Of a DNA stretch of 11,547 nucleotides, positions 3,137 to 10,545 are shown in pieces. The notes under the pieces are model-generated. The model was not told the origin of the DNA and did no database searches. It worked only from the letters and a program-made list of their open reading frames with translations. The number at the start of each line of letters is the position of its first letter. Position 1 is the first letter of the stretch. The DNA comes from a virus. Lineage: Duplodnaviria; Heunggongvirae; Uroviricota; Caudoviricetes. Where the stretch lies: IMG/VR virus record IMGVR_UViG_2529292734_000012. One strand, given 5' to 3'. The position numbers and the translations under genes were made by a program.

Positions 3137-3379
3137 ATGGTCTGGCACGAAAAATCATCCAATGTCTGCGGTGAAGGGCTGCAACTGGCGTTAATGGCAA
3201 ATCGTGAATTCTGGTCAACATACGATCCGGAAGACAAATCAACAGCCCCCACAAAACACGAGGTAGTCAGTTTTTTACGCTCGCGTGGCGCATCGAAAAA
3301 TCTGGCTGAAAGCATCGACAAGGTGCTGAGGCCCACCAGCCTTAAATGTGGTGGGCGACCTAAGAAGTGGAAACGGTAA
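3137..3379 (+). CDS. Hypothetical small protein (80 aa; alternative start at 3194), basic C-terminus
   Basis: ORF sits between a promoter-like element and a strong intrinsic terminator. There is no convincing Shine-Dalgarno sequence and no family was recognised. Confidence 0.35.
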   Translation: MVWHEKSSNVCGEGLQLALMANREFWSTYDPEDKSTAPTKHEVVSFLRSRGASKNLAESIDKVLRPTSLKCGGRPKKWKR

Positions 3380-3548: not shown

Positions 3549-3755
3549 ATGGAAGTAATCAGAAAAATTCTTACCCGTCAGGAAGTAAAAAATATTCTGC
3601 GCATCAAGGCAGACAGTTCGCTACAGGACATGATCAACGCCGGAAAATTCCCGAAAGGCTTCAAAATCGGTCTGCGCCGTGTTGGCTGGTATGAAGATGA
3701 GGTGCAGGCCTGGTTGAAAGAACGCGAGGAAGAAGCGCGCGGAACGGCTGCGTAA
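3549..3755 (+). CDS. alpA: AlpA-family phage transcriptional regulator / excisionase-like HTH protein (68 aa)
   Basis: Short MerR-like HTH protein (LTRQEVKNILRIKADSSLQDMINAGKFPKGFKIGLRRVGWYEDEVQAWL) with the conserved Trp-containing C-terminus typical of AlpA/Vis proteins. GAGGT RBS. Position just after the integrase as in P4-like and PICI elements. Confidence 0.75.
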   Translation: MEVIRKILTRQEVKNILRIKADSSLQDMINAGKFPKGFKIGLRRVGWYEDEVQAWLKEREEEARGTAA

Positions 3756-5402: not shown

Positions 5403-5616
5403 TGATCGTTTTAATTCCCTGAAACAGGAATTTTCCGGCGTTCCTGATAATGCAGCTGATGCGCTTTCGTCAATATCTGAAATTATGCGGGTGGCTTTTT
5501 TCTTTCTTTGCACTGATGAGCATAGGGATACAGGGCTAAATATTCTTGATATCGCCGCTAACTATGCTGATTTCGTAACGGAAACTGTTTTAAGAAAAAC
5601 AACGGGTGGGGATTAA
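5395..5616 (+). CDS. Hypothetical protein (73 aa)
   Basis: Start overlaps the upstream stop (ATGCGTGA); G-rich RBS. Confidence 0.45.
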   Translation: MRDDRFNSLKQEFSGVPDNAADALSSISEIMRVAFFFLCTDEHRDTGLNILDIAANYADFVTETVLRKTTGGD

Positions 5617-5617
5617 T

Positions 5618-5851
5618 ATGCGTGATATTTACCTCGAAACAATAGACCGCGCATTTCTTGCACTTTCTCACAGTGAAAGCATGATGGAAATATTACGCAT
5701 ATGGCTTGAAACACTTGGCGACAATGAACGCGACAAACAAAAATCAAGAATTGCCACGGCATTAATAACGCTTCTTGAGCCTGTAATAATGGAACTGCAA
5801 GAAATAGATCTATTGCACGACAGATATAAAGAACAGCACACCGGAGAATAA
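5618..5851 (+). CDS. Hypothetical protein (77 aa), predicted helical
   Basis: ATG at 5618 is 1 nt after the upstream stop, preceded by GGTGGGGA. The GTG at 5606 in the ORF track is less likely. Confidence 0.45.
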   Translation: MRDIYLETIDRAFLALSHSESMMEILRIWLETLGDNERDKQKSRIATALITLLEPVIMELQEIDLLHDRYKEQHTGE

Positions 5852-5856
5852 AAATA

Positions 5857-6156
5857 ATGAAACTTAAATATTCTGGCTTAACTGCCAGTGGCAACACTCA
5901 CCCTAAATTTACGCGCGGCGATATTTACCGCGACCAGTACGGCGGCACGGTAATGATTAAGGGCGTGGAAGAACGGCGCGTAACCTACCGCCGTGAAGGT
6001 TACGAATATGATTGCGTGATGCCTGTTTATCAGTTCCGGCGTGATTTTTCTCTGGTACAGACCGCGCCGCATAACGTGTCCACCAGCAACGCCAGGGCAC
6101 GGGCAAACATCCAGAAGCTGAAAACCATGATTAACGGATTCAGGGGTAAAAAATGA
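5857..6156 (+). CDS. Hypothetical protein (99 aa), translationally coupled to the replication ATPase
   Basis: GGAGA RBS. Stop overlaps the start of the downstream gene (ATGA at 6153-6156). Confidence 0.5.
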   Translation: MKLKYSGLTASGNTHPKFTRGDIYRDQYGGTVMIKGVEERRVTYRREGYEYDCVMPVYQFRRDFSLVQTAPHNVSTSNARARANIQKLKTMINGFRGKK

Positions 6157-7559
6157 AACTGGCACCGAACGTAAAACTGTTACCGAAAGATAAACACACT
6201 GAGGCGGTTATTTTTGCGGGTGATAATGCTCACTCCTTTGCAGAACATTACATGATTGCACAGGCCAAAAAAGCAGGCGATCCCATCCCTCCGGTTTACC
6301 TGGGCCGTTATCAGTTAAGCGAACTGGACAATTTACAGATTGTTGATGAAGGACGATACAGAGCAAAGGTCATACGCGCCGGAAACCTGGACGATATGCA
6401 GATGCTGACCATTGCCACCAAACTGGCGATCGCAGGTGTCCGGGAAGCGCGGTTACTTTCAGAGAATTTCGAACTACTGGAGGACTGGAGCGAGCAACTA
6501 CCCCGACTTAAAGAAACCTGGGAACGCGGGGAAAGTCTGGTCATGAATGGCGGAAAGCGAAAAATCACACTTCCCATCTCATGGGGTTCTGAGGGATTCG
6601 ACGCGCAGCAAAGCTACGTAATTAAGGGGCTTATTCCGGCTGAATCATTATGCAGCACCTACGGGGCCAGCGGTTCTTATAAATCGTTCCTGGCTATTTC
6701 CTGGTCGTGTCATGTTGCCACAGGTATAGCATGGGGAGGCCGCAGGGTAAGTAAGGGCGCGGTTATCTATATCGCTGGCGAAGGCAGTATGGGCGTAAAA
6801 CGCCGCGTTAAGGCGTGGGAGATAACCCACGACAAGGTGGTTACGGATTTGTGCATCGTTAACGCGCCTGTCTTCCCTGCATCGCCTGACTATGTGGAGC
6901 AGGTTATCAGGACCGCCGGATTAGTGCAAGACAGAACGGGCGAAAGGGTGCGGATGATTGTCATTGACACACTGGCCCGTTGCTTTGGTGGTCATGATGA
7001 AAATGACTCCCGCGACATGGGGGCGTTTATCCAGGGGTGTGACGCGATAAAGCAGGCCACGGGGGCCACGGTTCTGGTTGTGCATCATTCCGGCAAGGAT
7101 GAGACGAAAGGGGCGCGGGGTTCCAGTGCATTCCGTGCGGCGCTTGATGCTGAGTTCCGAATCAGTCGGGAACATTCAGAGGCTACGGCGCTGGTTGCAG
7201 CATGTACGAAGATGAAGGACGCGGAGGAGCCAAAAGAAAGCGCCTACGACCTTAAGAGCGTGGAGGTATTTACGGATCCTGAGGGTGAAGAAATCGTGTC
7301 CATGGTGGTGATTGACGTTCCCCGCGCCCCTGCTGAACTGGAGCGCATAGAGGAGGCCGGGAACAAGACGGAAAATCACACGGCTTTATGGGGTTGTATC
7401 CGGTCACGTATACAGCATGGTGATAAATGCACGATCCCGCTGCTACGTGATGACATGAAAAAGCTGGGATATGACACAAAACACCTTAAACGATGGTTAG
7501 CCAAACTGGAAAAAGACGGCGTGATTTGCGTCGATGGGGATGATGTTCACCCACTGTAA
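6153..7559 (+). CDS. Replication initiator/helicase-like P-loop ATPase (RepA/AAA_25-like RecA-fold), 468 aa
   Basis: Deviant Walker A GASGSYKS, Walker B-like MIVIDTLARCF, and VLVVHHSGKDETKGARGSSAF typical of RepA/AAA_25-type ATPases. Followed immediately by an iteron array. Confidence 0.75.
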   Translation: MKLAPNVKLLPKDKHTEAVIFAGDNAHSFAEHYMIAQAKKAGDPIPPVYLGRYQLSELDNLQIVDEGRYRAKVIRAGNLDDMQMLTIATKLAIAGVREARLLSENFELLEDWSEQLPRLKETWERGESLVMNGGKRKITLPISWGSEGFDAQQSYVIKGLIPAESLCSTYGASGSYKSFLAISWSCHVATGIAWGGRRVSKGAVIYIAGEGSMGVKRRVKAWEITHDKVVTDLCIVNAPVFPASPDYVEQVIRTAGLVQDRTGERVRMIVIDTLARCFGGHDENDSRDMGAFIQGCDAIKQATGATVLVVHHSGKDETKGARGSSAFRAALDAEFRISREHSEATALVAACTKMKDAEEPKESAYDLKSVEVFTDPEGEEIVSMVVIDVPRAPAELERIEEAGNKTENHTALWGCIRSRIQHGDKCTIPLLRDDMKKLGYDTKHLKRWLAKLEKDGVICVDGDDVHPL

Positions 7560-7760
7560 AAAGTGGGCGTTAAAAGTGGGAATAGTGGGTAATTTAACTG
7601 GAATTTAACAAAATCGCCCACTTTCCCACGTGTATACATCCCAAAAAGTGGGCACTAAAAAAATTCTTATGAAACAGTACGATATAAAACCACAAAATCC
7701 CAGGTGGGACGAAGTGGGAAACCATGAAAAGTGGGTAGAAAAAGTGGGCACAGGTGGGCG
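7550..7760. repeat. Iteron-type origin of replication: at least 9 direct and 3 inverted copies of (A)AAGTGGG flanking an AT-rich core
   Basis: AGTGGG/GGTGGG at 7562, 7575, 7584, 7647, 7704, 7713, 7730, 7743, 7754; inverted CCCACT/TCCCAC at 7550, 7617, 7624. AT-rich AATTTAAC x2 at 7591-7609. Lies directly 3' of the rep ATPase gene. Confidence 0.65.
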
Positions 7761-7761
7761 C

Positions 7762-8013
7762 ATGACCAGAAAAACCAGAGATAAGACAGCACCAAAATAT
7801 CGCGCATTAGACATGACAGAGCACGCCTTAAAGGTGGCAATCAGAACGATAGACCGCCACGCCGGAGAAGGATACGCGAAAGCACATCCCGAACTGATAA
7901 GCGCATTCATGACCACGACGGCGGCAAATTTTGCCACGCTGACAGAGCGGGAGATTGCCGAAGCGGAACAGGTAACAACAATCAACGTTAAAACCGGAGA
8001 GGTGGAATCATGA
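7762..8013 (+). CDS. Hypothetical protein (83 aa)
   Basis: ATG at 7762 preceded by AGGTGGG. The longer frame from 7630 would run through the iterons and is rejected. Stop overlaps the SSB start (ATGA). Confidence 0.45.
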   Translation: MTRKTRDKTAPKYRALDMTEHALKVAIRTIDRHAGEGYAKAHPELISAFMTTTAANFATLTEREIAEAEQVTTINVKTGEVES

Positions 8014-8432
8014 CAGCACAGATAGCGGCTTACGGGCGGCTGGTGGCTGACCCGCAGTTAAAGACCACTAGCAAAGGGACACAAATGGCGATGGCGAGTA
8101 TGGCGGTTCCCCTGCCGTGCAGCCAGGCAGATGACGGAACGGCGACGATGTGGTTATCTGTCCTGGCGTTTGGCAGACAGGCCGACGCACTGGCAAAACA
8201 CCACAAAGGCGAACTGGTGAGCGTGGCGGGTAACATGCAGGTGAGCCAGTGGACAGGCCAGAACGGGGAAACGCGGCAGGGCTGGCAGGTTATTGCAGAC
8301 AGCGTAATCAGTGCGCGAACGGCGCGACCGGGCGGCAAAAAAGGTCAACAGGGCCAGGCTACTGACGCGCTGAACAGGGCAAAACAACAGGCGGGAAATG
8401 ATGATCCGTACGGGGATAACATACCGTTTTAA
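8010..8432 (+). CDS. ssb: Single-stranded DNA-binding protein (SSB-like, 140 aa)
   Basis: OB-fold-like N-terminal region and an acidic C-terminal tail ending DDPYGDNIPF, resembling the SSB DDDIPF tail. GGAGAGGTGG RBS. Confidence 0.7.
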   Translation: MTAQIAAYGRLVADPQLKTTSKGTQMAMASMAVPLPCSQADDGTATMWLSVLAFGRQADALAKHHKGELVSVAGNMQVSQWTGQNGETRQGWQVIADSVISARTARPGGKKGQQGQATDALNRAKQQAGNDDPYGDNIPF

Positions 8433-8445
8433 GCAACGAGTAACA

Positions 8446-8470
8446 GAGGCCGGAGCAATCCGGCTTTTAT
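8446..8470 (+). terminator. Rho-independent terminator ending the replication module
   Basis: GCCGGA-gcaa-TCCGGC hairpin followed by TTTTAT. Confidence 0.6.
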
Positions 8471-8493
8471 CAGTTGAGTCCGTCACACTACGC

Positions 8494-8519
8494 AAAAAAA
8501 AGGCCGGAATATTCCGACC
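8494..8519 (-). terminator. Rho-independent terminator on the minus strand (faces the + terminator)
   Basis: The minus strand reads GGTCGGA-ATAT-TCCGGCC followed by TTTTTTTT. Confidence 0.55.
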
Positions 8520-8704
8520 CTTTCATCACCAAAGAGAATAATTTATGTCTTTGAACTTGTAACGCTGTACAGAATGACACGTAACGCCGGATAAATAAAC
8601 GAAGATTGAAACTTTGCACACTATTGCATAGCAATGCATAAAGATGCCAAACAAGGCAGATGATAAAATTAACGCGACACTTTTACTAAGTATTAAGAGG
8701 TTAT

Positions 8705-9745
8705 ATGAGTGATTTATATTCGCCAGCCATGTTAATACAGGTTGTTAATGCCGAAGATATTCAATGGCAGATTAATTCTTTATTTATAAACCTGTTTTTT
8801 AAGCGAGTCGTTACATTTGAGACGCGGGATATTGCGCTTGATATTATTGACGATCCAGACATCCCGATGGCTGCATTTTGTTCCCCTATGGTTGGTAGTA
8901 AAGTCTCACGCGATGAAGGCTACGAATCAAAAGTAATTCGCCCTGGCTATATGAAGCCAAAAAGTAGTATCGACCCAAATAAAATAGCCGTTCGTCAACC
9001 AGGCGTATCACCTGAACAATTCAATGCATATTCATCACGCAGTTTCAAAATAAAGCGAGCGTTAGTAAGACAAGCGCAGGCAATTCGTGCGCGTATTGAG
9101 TGGCTTGCTGTTCAGGCGGTTACAACGGGGAAAAATATCATTGAAGGCGATGGAATTGAACGTTATGAACTGGACTGGAATATAAAACCACAAAATATTA
9201 TCACGCAGTCCGGCGGCACGGAGTGGAGCGGTAGAGATTTATCAACATTTGATCCAAACGATGACATCGAAGAGTACGCAGAAATCAGCGAAGGTACTAC
9301 AAATATCATCGTAATGGGCCGCAACGTATGGAAAAAATACCGCGCCTTTAAAGCAGTAAAAGATTGCCTTGATACTCGACGGGGATCTAATTCCGTTCTT
9401 GAAACGGCCCTGAAAAATCTTGGGGATTCTGTAAGCTTCAAGGGTTACGTTGGCGATGTTGCTATTGTGGTATATAGCGGACGTTATACCGACGAGGACG
9501 GCAAAGAAAAATATTTCCTTGATCCTGATTTGATGGTGCTTGGCAACACATCATTACAGGGCATCGTTGCCTACGGTGGCATTCAGGATCCTGAGTTAAT
9601 CAGAATGGGGCTGACTAAAGCCGAACTTGCGCCGAAAAATTACATCGTACCAGGTGATCCGGCTATTGAATATGTGCAGACGCACAGCGCACCGCAACCA
9701 ATACCGGCCCGCATCAATCGTTTTGTTACCGTTCGCATTGGTTAA
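8705..9745 (+). CDS. Phage major capsid protein, lambda gpE family (346 aa)
   Basis: Long collinear similarity to lambda gpE as I recall it: ITQSGGTEWS, FKAVK..LDTRRGSNS.LETA, GDVAIVVYSG, MVLGNT, YGGIQD. Similar length (346 vs 341 aa). AAGAGG RBS. Confidence 0.9.
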   Translation: MSDLYSPAMLIQVVNAEDIQWQINSLFINLFFKRVVTFETRDIALDIIDDPDIPMAAFCSPMVGSKVSRDEGYESKVIRPGYMKPKSSIDPNKIAVRQPGVSPEQFNAYSSRSFKIKRALVRQAQAIRARIEWLAVQAVTTGKNIIEGDGIERYELDWNIKPQNIITQSGGTEWSGRDLSTFDPNDDIEEYAEISEGTTNIIVMGRNVWKKYRAFKAVKDCLDTRRGSNSVLETALKNLGDSVSFKGYVGDVAIVVYSGRYTDEDGKEKYFLDPDLMVLGNTSLQGIVAYGGIQDPELIRMGLTKAELAPKNYIVPGDPAIEYVQTHSAPQPIPARINRFVTVRIG

Positions 9746-10105: not shown

Positions 10106-10423
10106 ATGATTGAAAGAGATAGTCAGCTACGAGAGCTATTAGATATCGATGACAAAATGAGTTTAAGCGAGCGCCTTGTTGATATGGATCAGGTAGTGGA
10201 GCTTACAACCCTTAGCCGTCGCACATTGCTAAACCTTGAGGCTCGCGGAGAGTTCCCCGAACGCGTACAGGTTACGAAAGGGCGCAAGGCATGGTATTTA
10301 AGCGAGGTTGTTGCGTGGATTAACAACATTCCGCGCGCATCAAATTATTGCCTTGTTCCCACCCCGAAAAACCTGATGCGGCGTTATGCCTCAAGATTGA
10401 ACGCGCCAGGCGTAATGCCCTGA
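10106..10423 (+). CDS. HTH DNA-binding protein (AlpA/MerR-like HTH_17 type), 105 aa
   Basis: VVELTTLSRRTLLNLEARGEFPERVQVTKGRKAWYLSEVVAWI resembles the AlpA/excisionase-type HTH. GAGGT RBS. Lies between the decoration gene and cos. Confidence 0.55.
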   Translation: MIERDSQLRELLDIDDKMSLSERLVDMDQVVELTTLSRRTLLNLEARGEFPERVQVTKGRKAWYLSEVVAWINNIPRASNYCLVPTPKNLMRRYASRLNAPGVMP

Positions 10424-10489: not shown

Positions 10490-10545
10490 GATCCGGCAGG
10501 CTACGGGGCGGCGACCTTGCGGTTTTTCGCTATTTATGAGCTTTT
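10490..10545. other. Lambda-type cos site (cosN cohesive-end sequence GGGCGGCGACCT at 10506-10517, plus start of cosB)
   Basis: ctACGGGGCGGCGACCTtGCGGtTTTTCGCTATTTATGAg matches the lambda left-end/cosN sequence GGGCGGCGACCTCGCGGGTTTTCGCTATTTATGAAAA (from memory) with a few substitutions. Sits about 130 bp upstream of a Nu1-like gene, as in lambda. Confidence 0.7.

Follow-up and report, generated by a model that had tools for sequence, protein, structure and literature searches.

What does an intrinsic terminator terminate when no gene precedes it? This is the question raised by a GC-rich hairpin in the window (the whole stretch of DNA analyzed here, 11,547 nucleotides long), which lies between the last replication gene and the capsid gene of a phage satellite and which acquires its run of U residues when it is read on the minus strand, where it has no gene upstream of it. 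Our analysis suggests, with a probability that we would put at roughly 55%, that this orphan hairpin ends a small, independently transcribed, noncoding minus-strand RNA located in the control region of the capsid/packaging operon.

By its gene content, the element that the window carries at tRNA-Pro is an E. coli phage satellite, namely a cos PICI of the EcCICFT073 type. It carries an integrase at the tRNA, AlpA, a primase-helicase, homologs of the capsid proteins E and D, an Rpp-like wHTH protein and cosN, while the gene set described for this type of satellite includes a putative capsid (c1499), a decoration protein (c1500) and Rpp (c1503) (PMC6092414, PMC6739421). Read rightward, the genes are an integrase, AlpA, icd-like genes, a DUF4222 gene, a primase-helicase (AAA_25), a small gene and ssb, followed by a lambda E-like capsid gene, a D-like decoration gene, a second AlpA-family winged-helix gene, cosN and a Nu1-like small terminase gene. 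The part of the window that was compared, 8300-8900, is 100% identical to E. coli GTEN_23. The landmarks of the island are as follows.

1497-1570: tRNA-Pro, the insertion site of the island of about 10 kb, with yejM and yejO on either side
3549-3755: AlpA
8010-8432, plus strand: ssb, the last gene of the replication module (Pfam SSB, E = 4e-16; annotated as single-stranded DNA-binding protein in NZ_CP113486)
8705-9745, plus strand: major capsid protein E homolog (Pfam Phage_cap_E, E = 3e-41), which opens the morphogenesis/packaging operon
10106-10423: second AlpA-family winged-helix gene, encoding an AlpA/MerR-like, Rpp-like wHTH protein
10506-10517: cosN, with the sequence GGGCGGCGACCT

The gap between ssb and the capsid gene is 272 nt long and contains the orphan terminator. 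We found no description in the literature of how the capsid and packaging genes are regulated in Gram-negative PICIs, and PMC6092414 explicitly calls the helper-derived activator unidentified. Two candidate identities for the terminator region can be ruled out: it is not cos, as cosN sits at 10506-10517, and it is not the replication origin, as PICI origins adjoin pri-rep (PMC6092414).

The gap holds two hairpins of opposite orientation.

8448-8470, plus strand: intrinsic terminator of the ssb module, a hairpin at 8448-8465 (GGCCGGAGCAAUCCGGCU) followed by UUUAU
8494-8520, minus strand: intrinsic terminator, a stem-loop at 8520-8501 with a U8 tract at 8501-8494

On the minus strand, the orphan hairpin reads 5'-GGGUCGGAAUAUUCCGGCCU-3' from 8520 to 8501 and runs into U8, the first U of which also closes the stem, so that a GC-rich stem-loop is followed directly 3' by a run of U, as in intrinsic terminators. 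As minus-strand RNA, 8490-8526 folds at -16.1 kcal/mol (z = -4.15; equalled by 0 of 200 shuffles), whereas as plus-strand RNA it reaches only -8.1 kcal/mol, because a G.U pair turns into a C.A mismatch. The T-tract score is likewise asymmetric, at 4.82 on the minus strand and 2.68 or less on the plus strand, where the tail is CUUUCAUC; the U8 exists on the minus strand only. These values come from our own script, which combines the RNAfold energy with a T-tract score and which was used because a consensus promoter/terminator scan reports neither of the two hairpins, probably by extending their stems into the A/T flanks and thereby consuming the T tract. The ssb terminator shows the opposite preference, folding at -15.3 kcal/mol on the plus strand and at -11.7 kcal/mol on the minus strand, and it stands back to back with the orphan hairpin, 35 nt upstream of it. 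The two also differ in their distribution: similarity to 806 E. coli genomes spans ssb and its terminator and ends at about 8468, and the sequence to the right of this point is common to only 31 E. coli genomes. The break therefore assigns the ssb terminator to the replication module and the orphan hairpin to the capsid module. The original prediction had placed a minus-strand hairpin with an 8-U tract at 8494-8519, opposing the plus-strand terminator of the replication module, and both parts of that description hold, with the stem at 8501-8520, the U8 at 8501-8494 and the opposing terminator at 8448-8470.

To ask whether the arrangement is kept, we fetched relatives via the capsid protein; these comprise loci from Kluyvera, Superficieibacter, Cedecea and Kosakonia (n = 4; 77-80% amino acid identity), E. 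coli alleles with nucleotide identities of 78-79% and 67-69%, and 80 loci each from metagenomes and IMG/VR, together giving 87 distinct upstream sequences. Hairpins were compared in the group whose capsid is at least 74% identical (n = 66 distinct upstream sequences). A GC-rich hairpin is found 166-236 nt before the capsid ATG in 66/66 of these, with 24 different hairpin cores among them; position and orientation have therefore been kept while the sequence was replaced. The T-tract score is higher on the minus than on the plus strand in every one of the 66, a count somewhat biased toward this orientation in that the hairpin of each locus was picked as the best minus-strand terminator. Because the compared sequences are related by descent, such counts, including the 67/67 given below, do not represent independent events. 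As for how widespread the locus is, complete E. coli genomes matching the three allele groups number 31, about 365 and 578 (of 5426), where 31 and 578 come from searches with the intergenic region and about 365 from the capsid gene, and none of the three counts the full layout, which was verified directly only in the fetched loci, EcCICFT073 among them. As a further point against the region being the origin, iterons are visible in one of these loci (L004), and in Cedecea about fourteen GAACCACG iterons lie left of the terminator.

This comparison bears on whether the hairpin could instead be a second terminator, tandem or bidirectional, of the plus-strand replication operon. It does come after ssb; in Superficieibacter and Kosakonia the hairpin is nearly symmetric and lies 15-55 nt past a plus-strand gene, and in the EcCICFT073 family the plus-strand tail is UUUUGC. 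In the window, however, ssb already has its own terminator 35 nt upstream, and the plus-strand form of the orphan hairpin combines the tail CUUUCAUC with the C.A mismatch in the stem that limits it to -8.1 kcal/mol. The commonest E. coli allele has no hairpin from ssb to the capsid promoter except the orphan-type one, which on the plus strand is followed by ATGCTAC (AUGCUAC as RNA); the plus-strand T-tract score, moreover, falls below the minus-strand score in 66/66. We therefore regard a role in ending the replication operon as very improbable. Judged by its fold energies, its T tract and the 66 relatives, the orphan hairpin is a minus-strand intrinsic terminator without a gene upstream, as first observed, and it lies far from what chance would produce, because its position and orientation are conserved.

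If the hairpin terminates a minus-strand transcript, where would that transcript begin? The features that bear on this are listed here.

8571-8579, minus strand: candidate leftward extended -10, TGTCATTCT, with TG at 8579-8578 and the hexamer CATTCT at 8576-8571
8614-8649, plus strand: four direct repeats at 10-bp spacing (TTGCAC, TTGCAT, ATGCAT and ATGCCA, starting at 8614, 8624, 8634 and 8644)
8661-8669, plus strand: extended -10 of the capsid/packaging operon, TGATAAAAT, with a predicted start at about 8676
8494-8564, minus strand: predicted small RNA of about 68-71 nt, a 5' hairpin (about 8564-8524) followed directly by the terminator

We aligned 17 diverse upstream regions with MAFFT without reference to any motif. 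Conservation from the hairpin to the capsid promoter is low in this alignment apart from three elements, namely the repeat array, the plus-strand TGnTAnnAT of the capsid operon, which is kept in all allele types, and a minus-strand extended -10. The last of these shows up in five columns, four invariant and one nearly so, which read A...TA.CA on the plus strand and thus TGnTAnnnT on the minus strand, and they are the only invariant or near-invariant columns between the terminator and the array. In all 67 distinct array-bearing sequences (67/67), TGnYAnnnT lies exactly 34-35 nt from the distal repeat, across intervening bases that are not conserved, compared with a background of 0.0036 per position for this pattern in those regions. 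In another MAFFT alignment (genafpair), the motif of the window came out at 8593-8601; this placement was rejected because the array-anchored distance (34 nt) points to 8571-8579. One Fisher test is circular, the alignment being anchored on the motif, and we do not count it as evidence. Note here that the hexamer of the window, CATTCT, is the weakest of all alleles, with C at -12, three of six matches and no -35.

Across the alignment the consensus of the array is TTATAC or TTGCAC, then TTGCAC, TTGCAC and TTGCAT, at an exact 10-bp spacing. The plus-strand -10 lies 81-83 nt from the minus-strand motif in E. coli and Cedecea; the other alleles have 92-93 nt, one helical turn more. A fixed geometry of this sort would be expected of two divergent promoters served by one protein-bound array, and we presume that the array between them is the binding site of a regulator. 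Proteins of the AlpA/Xis type typically bind phased direct repeats, and two AlpA-family proteins are encoded in the island.

These observations can be assembled into a candidate mechanism. A sigma-70 extended -10 at 8579-8571, without a usable -35, would start transcription at about 8564, with +1 taken as the seventh base after the -10 hexamer; the RNA would open with a 5' hairpin and terminate at the hairpin plus U8 (8520-8494) after some 70 nt. The leftward promoter would be held 34-35 nt from the four 10-bp-phased TTGCA-type repeats, on the far side of which lies the extended -10 of the capsid operon, and since the array lies between the two divergent promoters, one DNA-bound regulator could control both.

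A different promoter had originally been proposed, TTGTTT-18-TATGCAAT, giving a transcript of about 120 nt. Its letters do exist, at 8655-8624 on the minus strand, but they form a weak match to sigma-70 inside the four-repeat array: the -10, TATGCA, has no T at -7 and fails the consensus scan, and the conservation of the element is due to the capsid-promoter repeats themselves. More generally, transcription might start in the array at about 8613, from the -10-like TGcAATAGT (8628-8620) or from TATGCA (8631-8626), and run for about 120 nt to the same terminator. Because, on the minus strand, the repeats resemble weak extended -10 elements, a start near 8613 keeps a small share of the probability: a weight-matrix scan of the minus strand of the window scores highest there, with TTGGCA-19-AATAGT (preceded by TG) and TTGGCA-16-TGCAAT, and the second repeat of the relatives reads TGcAATAAT or TGcAATGAT on the minus strand. 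We nevertheless consider it distinctly unlikely. The repeats account for the conservation of the element, its -12 base is A, and it fails the consensus scan; Cedecea does not have the element (TAcAATAGA), yet it keeps the terminator; and the extended -10 at 8571-8579 is conserved without another explanation and puts +1 at the base of a hairpin. From this conserved extended -10, the length predicted is about 70 nt in place of about 120 nt.

The corrected start also alters how the RNA relates to its neighbors. It had been suggested to be antisense to, or opposite, the capsid promoter. The predicted capsid start (about 8676), however, is found about 110 nt to the right of the predicted RNA, and with the two predicted starts separated by about 112 bp and directed outward, the RNA would not be antisense to the capsid promoter or leader. 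On its other side, it lies to the right of the ssb terminator, which ends at 8470, and in the window allele it overlaps no predicted plus-strand transcript.

Could the transcript instead encode a small protein? As was noted from the outset, the minus strand from the hairpin to the capsid gene has no ORF of 60 aa or more; we find only two ORFs there, both TTG-started, of 48 aa (8488-8634) and 42 aa (8526-8654). A 36-codon ORF reported earlier is indeed present, with its ATG at 8639 inside the 42-aa ORF, and has no ribosome-binding site as reported; it is absent from the relatives, and its start lies upstream of both candidate transcription starts. The same objections apply to a product of 37-48 aa from any of these minus-strand ORFs, which exist but have no ribosome-binding site, start upstream of both candidate transcription starts and have no equivalent in Kluyvera or other relatives. 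Such a product is hardly credible, and we place in the same class a hairpin arisen by chance, which its kept position and orientation exclude. The predicted transcript thus contains no conserved ORF with a ribosome-binding site, as is usual for an sRNA. The small minus-strand RNA of the original prediction is accordingly retained, a short noncoding transcript being the best explanation of the comparative data, with its promoter and its size corrected.

The window RNA (8564 to 8494) would have the sequence CGUUACAAGUUCAAAGACAUAAAUUAUUCUCUUUGGUGAUGAAAGGGUCGGAAUAUUCCGGCCUUUUUUUU and is predicted to fold into a 41-nt 5' hairpin that begins at +1, with the terminator adjoining; the folding energy of the 72-nt stretch is -21.6 kcal/mol (z = -3.9; matched by 0 of 200 shuffles). 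Across alleles, the predicted RNAs are 59-84 nt long with the terminator at the 3' end, and the 5' stem-loop of nine non-E. coli allele types has its first paired base at +1 or 1-3 nt away from it. In these non-E. coli alleles the loop, (U)CCUCC, is invariant while the stems vary, examples of differing stems being UGUUAUUU/AAAUAACA, GUCGCU/GGCGAC and GUUACUGUU/AAUGGUAAU. The 5' hairpin is more stable in its minus-strand than in its plus-strand version in loci L047 (-4.9 versus -1.8), L052 (-6.5 versus -4.1) and L003 (-12.5 versus -10.2), because of G.U pairs. A covariance model of the non-E. coli alleles matches only the minus strand at this locus (E = 1e-10 to 1e-18); in the alignment that goes with it, pairing holds in 90% of cells, both partners vary in 8 pairs, and the score was equalled by 0 of 500 shuffles, although these covariation counts are indicative only, the alignment having been fitted to the model and some 5' stems being misplaced.

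The same model finds its own subgroup only and does not detect the E. coli alleles, so that the homology of the RNA bodies rests on position and not on sequence. Alleles of the window type are 98-100% identical and hence uninformative for covariation. The E. coli alleles have, in place of the CCUCC loop, a pyrimidine-rich YUCYCUUUGG motif, which in the window allele is UUCUCUUUGG; exact CCUCC is absent there, and the motif is predicted to be paired inside the 5' hairpin. A more distant family, whose capsid is at 55% amino acid identity and which includes EcCICFT073, has a matching layout built from different sequences. In this family, a minus-strand promoter-like element, TTGAGT-17-TGaAATGAT (also found in a variant ending in ...TT), precedes the terminator by 52-59 nt, and the terminator has the form GCCCGAUAAG...CUUAUCGGGC followed by U6-U7; the linker contains CCUC and the terminator loop CCUC(C)U. 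The unit of EcCICFT073 itself is TTGAGT-17-TGAAATGTT, with a predicted RNA of about 77 nt.

Searches for an already described counterpart gave no match within their scope. Rfam 15, C4 and CI included, has no match in 8433-8704 at an E of 10 or less and none at the homologous place in eight relatives at an E of 1 or less, and a blastn comparison of the intergenic region with 50,697 phage records also gave none. In the literature on PICI sRNAs and on CFT073 locus tags, we found nothing on the region. The supplement of an Hfq-CRAC study of EHEC (PMC4104026) has no entry at Sakai Sp7 (phoQ); Sp7 is a capsid-forming PICI without the promoter-RNA-terminator module, and the Sakai data are inapplicable here because Sp7 does not carry the locus.

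As to function, the RNA would most likely base-pair through its pyrimidine-rich, anti-Shine-Dalgarno-like motif (CCUCC in most relatives, UUCUCUUUGG here), and its expected targets would be the purine-rich ribosome-binding sites of satellite, helper phage or host mRNAs; it is the anti-Shine-Dalgarno-like character of the loop that argues for pairing with ribosome-binding sites. Within the island, the best duplex reaches -23.5 kcal/mol, weaker than the shuffled-query mean of -29.0, and there are 2 perfect 8-mers against about 6 expected; in 68 translation-initiation regions of lambda, the RNAs of five alleles gave P = 0.6-0.8 relative to shuffles. That no target was found in the island or in the lambda start regions is in keeping with the main rival to our reading, namely that DNA-level effects account for the leftward promoter, that the terminator merely keeps its transcription from running antisense into ssb, the primase gene and the origin, and that the RNA has no function. 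Such an effect could be competition for RNA polymerase, or the promoter could be a by-product of the divergent control region. This explanation also draws on the poor conservation of the RNA bodies between allele groups, with the covariance model staying within one group, on Cedecea, where about 130 nt separate the terminator from the origin iterons beyond it, and on the window allele, which has no CCUCC. We consider it possible but somewhat unlikely, because a functionless by-product would not be expected to maintain what is maintained here: the (U)CCUCC loop is invariant over covarying stems in the non-E. coli group, the 5' hairpin begins at the predicted +1 in all groups, and the CCUC motif recurs in the distant EcCICFT073 family.

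Returning to the reading of a small RNA made from its own promoter, the sequences show the terminator with its strand asymmetry, and the conserved, regularly spaced promoter motif, array and hairpins; from these we infer the firing of that promoter, the exact 5' end, the regulation through the array and any function of the RNA. A more speculative extension, which we hold to be rather doubtful, is a two-way switch in which the regulator bound to the array would balance the capsid/packaging operon against the small RNA, while the CCUCC loop would silence late mRNAs of the helper or the satellite. The regulator could be one of the two AlpA-family proteins of the satellite or could be supplied by the helper. 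If true, this would amount to an RNA-level weapon or timer in the conflict between satellite and helper, undescribed for Gram-negative PICIs.

The locus presents itself as a compact and conserved control module consisting of a leftward extended -10, a predicted small RNA with its terminator, a four-repeat array and a rightward extended -10, and this layout is common to three allele groups, including that of EcCICFT073, an experimentally studied PICI. We found no description of an RNA regulator in EcCICFT073-type satellites in the literature, so that the RNA, if it is made, would be the first regulatory RNA proposed for this satellite family as far as we could find; it can be tested directly in an existing genetic system, that of the prototype EcCICFT073. 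Should the RNA turn out to be nonfunctional, the module would still define the promoter and the operator array of the capsid operon.

Several known systems resemble parts of this module. The oop RNA of lambda and the sar RNA of P22 are about 70-80 nt long, have their own promoter and an intrinsic terminator and are transcribed against a neighboring operon. They are, however, cis-antisense RNAs that overlap cII or ant, whereas the predicted RNA overlaps no predicted plus-strand transcript. C4 of P1 and P7 and CI of P4 are structured phage or satellite RNAs whose loops pair with sites covering ribosome-binding sites; they are processed from the leader of the operon that they control and have no promoter of their own. 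The predicted RNA differs from them in its predicted own promoter, in giving no Rfam match, and in showing no complementarity to ribosome-binding sites of the island above chance. A further point of likeness is that the island carries an icd-like gene.

The array can be compared with the lambda promoters that depend on CII, pRE, pI and paQ, where TTGC-N6-TTGC direct repeats (PMC4651098) lie by a promoter with a poor -35. This pattern is found at 8614-8647, as four units at 10-bp spacing. The array has four units and not two, however, its conserved unit is longer (ATTGCAC), and the distance from the proximal unit to the -10 hexamer is 16-17 nt in E. coli and Cedecea and 27 nt in the others, compared with 13 nt at lambda pRE. 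Canonical activation of the array by lambda CII was therefore rejected, since the motif fits and the geometry does not. The helpers of this type of PICI are lambdoid.

Among satellites, the PLE of Vibrio cholerae is reported to encode a regulatory sRNA that may tune expression in the conflict between satellite and helper (bioRxiv 10.1101/2022.04.08.487710); both would be small RNAs borne by satellites, PLE belonging to an unrelated satellite family and host. The lambdoid prophages of EHEC offer a further parallel in AgvB and AsxR, short sRNAs with their own promoter and terminator (PMC4104026). Like the predicted RNA with its candidate promoter, they are 50-80 nt long, reside on an acquired element and are transcribed from a promoter of their own; their 5' part is variable, and their 3' hairpin is conserved and forms a Rho-independent terminator that ends in a long U tail. 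AgvB and AsxR, which function as anti-sRNAs, are encoded downstream of PR' of lambdoid prophages, whereas the predicted RNA lies in a PICI between the replication module and the capsid operon and shares no sequence with them. On these comparisons, it is plausible that the orphan hairpin marks a small RNA locus of a known general kind that is new in this satellite family.

A mosaic joint lies at window ~8468, at which replication and morphogenesis modules are swapped between the plus-strand terminator of the ssb gene (hairpin 1, 8448-8470) and the minus-strand terminator on the capsid side (hairpin 2, 8494-8520). The ssb gene and its terminator are common to 806 E. coli genomes, and the sequence to the right of ~8468 is found in only 31. 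In element Sp7 of E. coli O157:H7 Sakai (L172 12104-13700), the replication module, pchE, and hairpin 1 are as in the window, and to the right of hairpin 1 lies the morphogenesis module of a capsid-forming PICI (HK97-type head, protease, portal, and terminase). The small-RNA unit, a predicted ~70-nt minus-strand RNA (8564-8494) ending at hairpin 2, and the repeat array are both absent from this stretch of Sp7.

The two terminator hairpins of 8448-8520, although clear, were both missed by an automated promoter and terminator scan, run on the whole window or on the region alone. The T tract at window 8494-8501 varies from ~T7 to T10 (stem-closing T counted) among the window and the same site in three related loci (L091, L092, and L012), which are otherwise 98-100% identical. 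This variation is due to homopolymer slippage and does not disrupt the terminator.

The window also differs from the GTEN_23 record (L001) beyond the compared region that matches at 100%, because gene coordinates from that record cannot be carried over to the window's left part (compared over ~5600-7560). The integrase shows a 258-nt offset, and the window has its primase ORF at 6153-7559, versus ~5666-7480 by transfer. The Cedecea locus (L004 3353-3680) has an AT-rich stretch surrounded by about fourteen copies of GAACCACG that occur in both orientations; this region comes immediately after the primase gene, ~130 nt left of the minus-strand terminator, and looks like the replication origin.

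Features of the capsid operon and its promoter

Window 8614-8669: four direct repeats (TTGCAC, TTGCAT, ATGCAT, ATGCCA) with an exact 10-bp spacing, then an extended -10
Window 10106-10423: second AlpA-family winged-helix gene (Pfam Phage_AlpA, E = 7e-8), located within the capsid operon
Window 10506-10517: GGGCGGCGACCT, identical to the cohesive-end sequence of lambda cosN, with the second AlpA-family gene on one side and the Nu1-like gene on the other
L174 (E. coli CFT073, NC_004431) 195-475, and 2540-2600 in related loci L009 and L010: palindrome region

A copy of the cosN sequence with two mismatches is present at window 3350-3361. The second AlpA-family gene is 73-76% conserved in other genera and, judged by its position, probably encodes the packaging-redirection protein Rpp.

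In the EcCICFT073 allele family, the capsid-operon promoter has a TATAAT with the palindrome (13+13 bp, TCATAACTGGATG-AA-CATCCAGTTATGA, followed by T6) immediately downstream; this palindrome could be an operator across the start site or, alternatively, a terminator in the leader that requires antitermination. In the window, the conserved extended -10 TGATAAAAT lies on the plus strand downstream of the four-repeat array, and the two together probably make up the promoter, dependent on an activator, that drives the capsid/packaging operon. The repeats fit the lambda CII motif TTGC-N6-TTGC; the distance from repeat to -10 is 16-17 or 27 nt at the PICI array, whereas it is 13 nt at lambda pRE.
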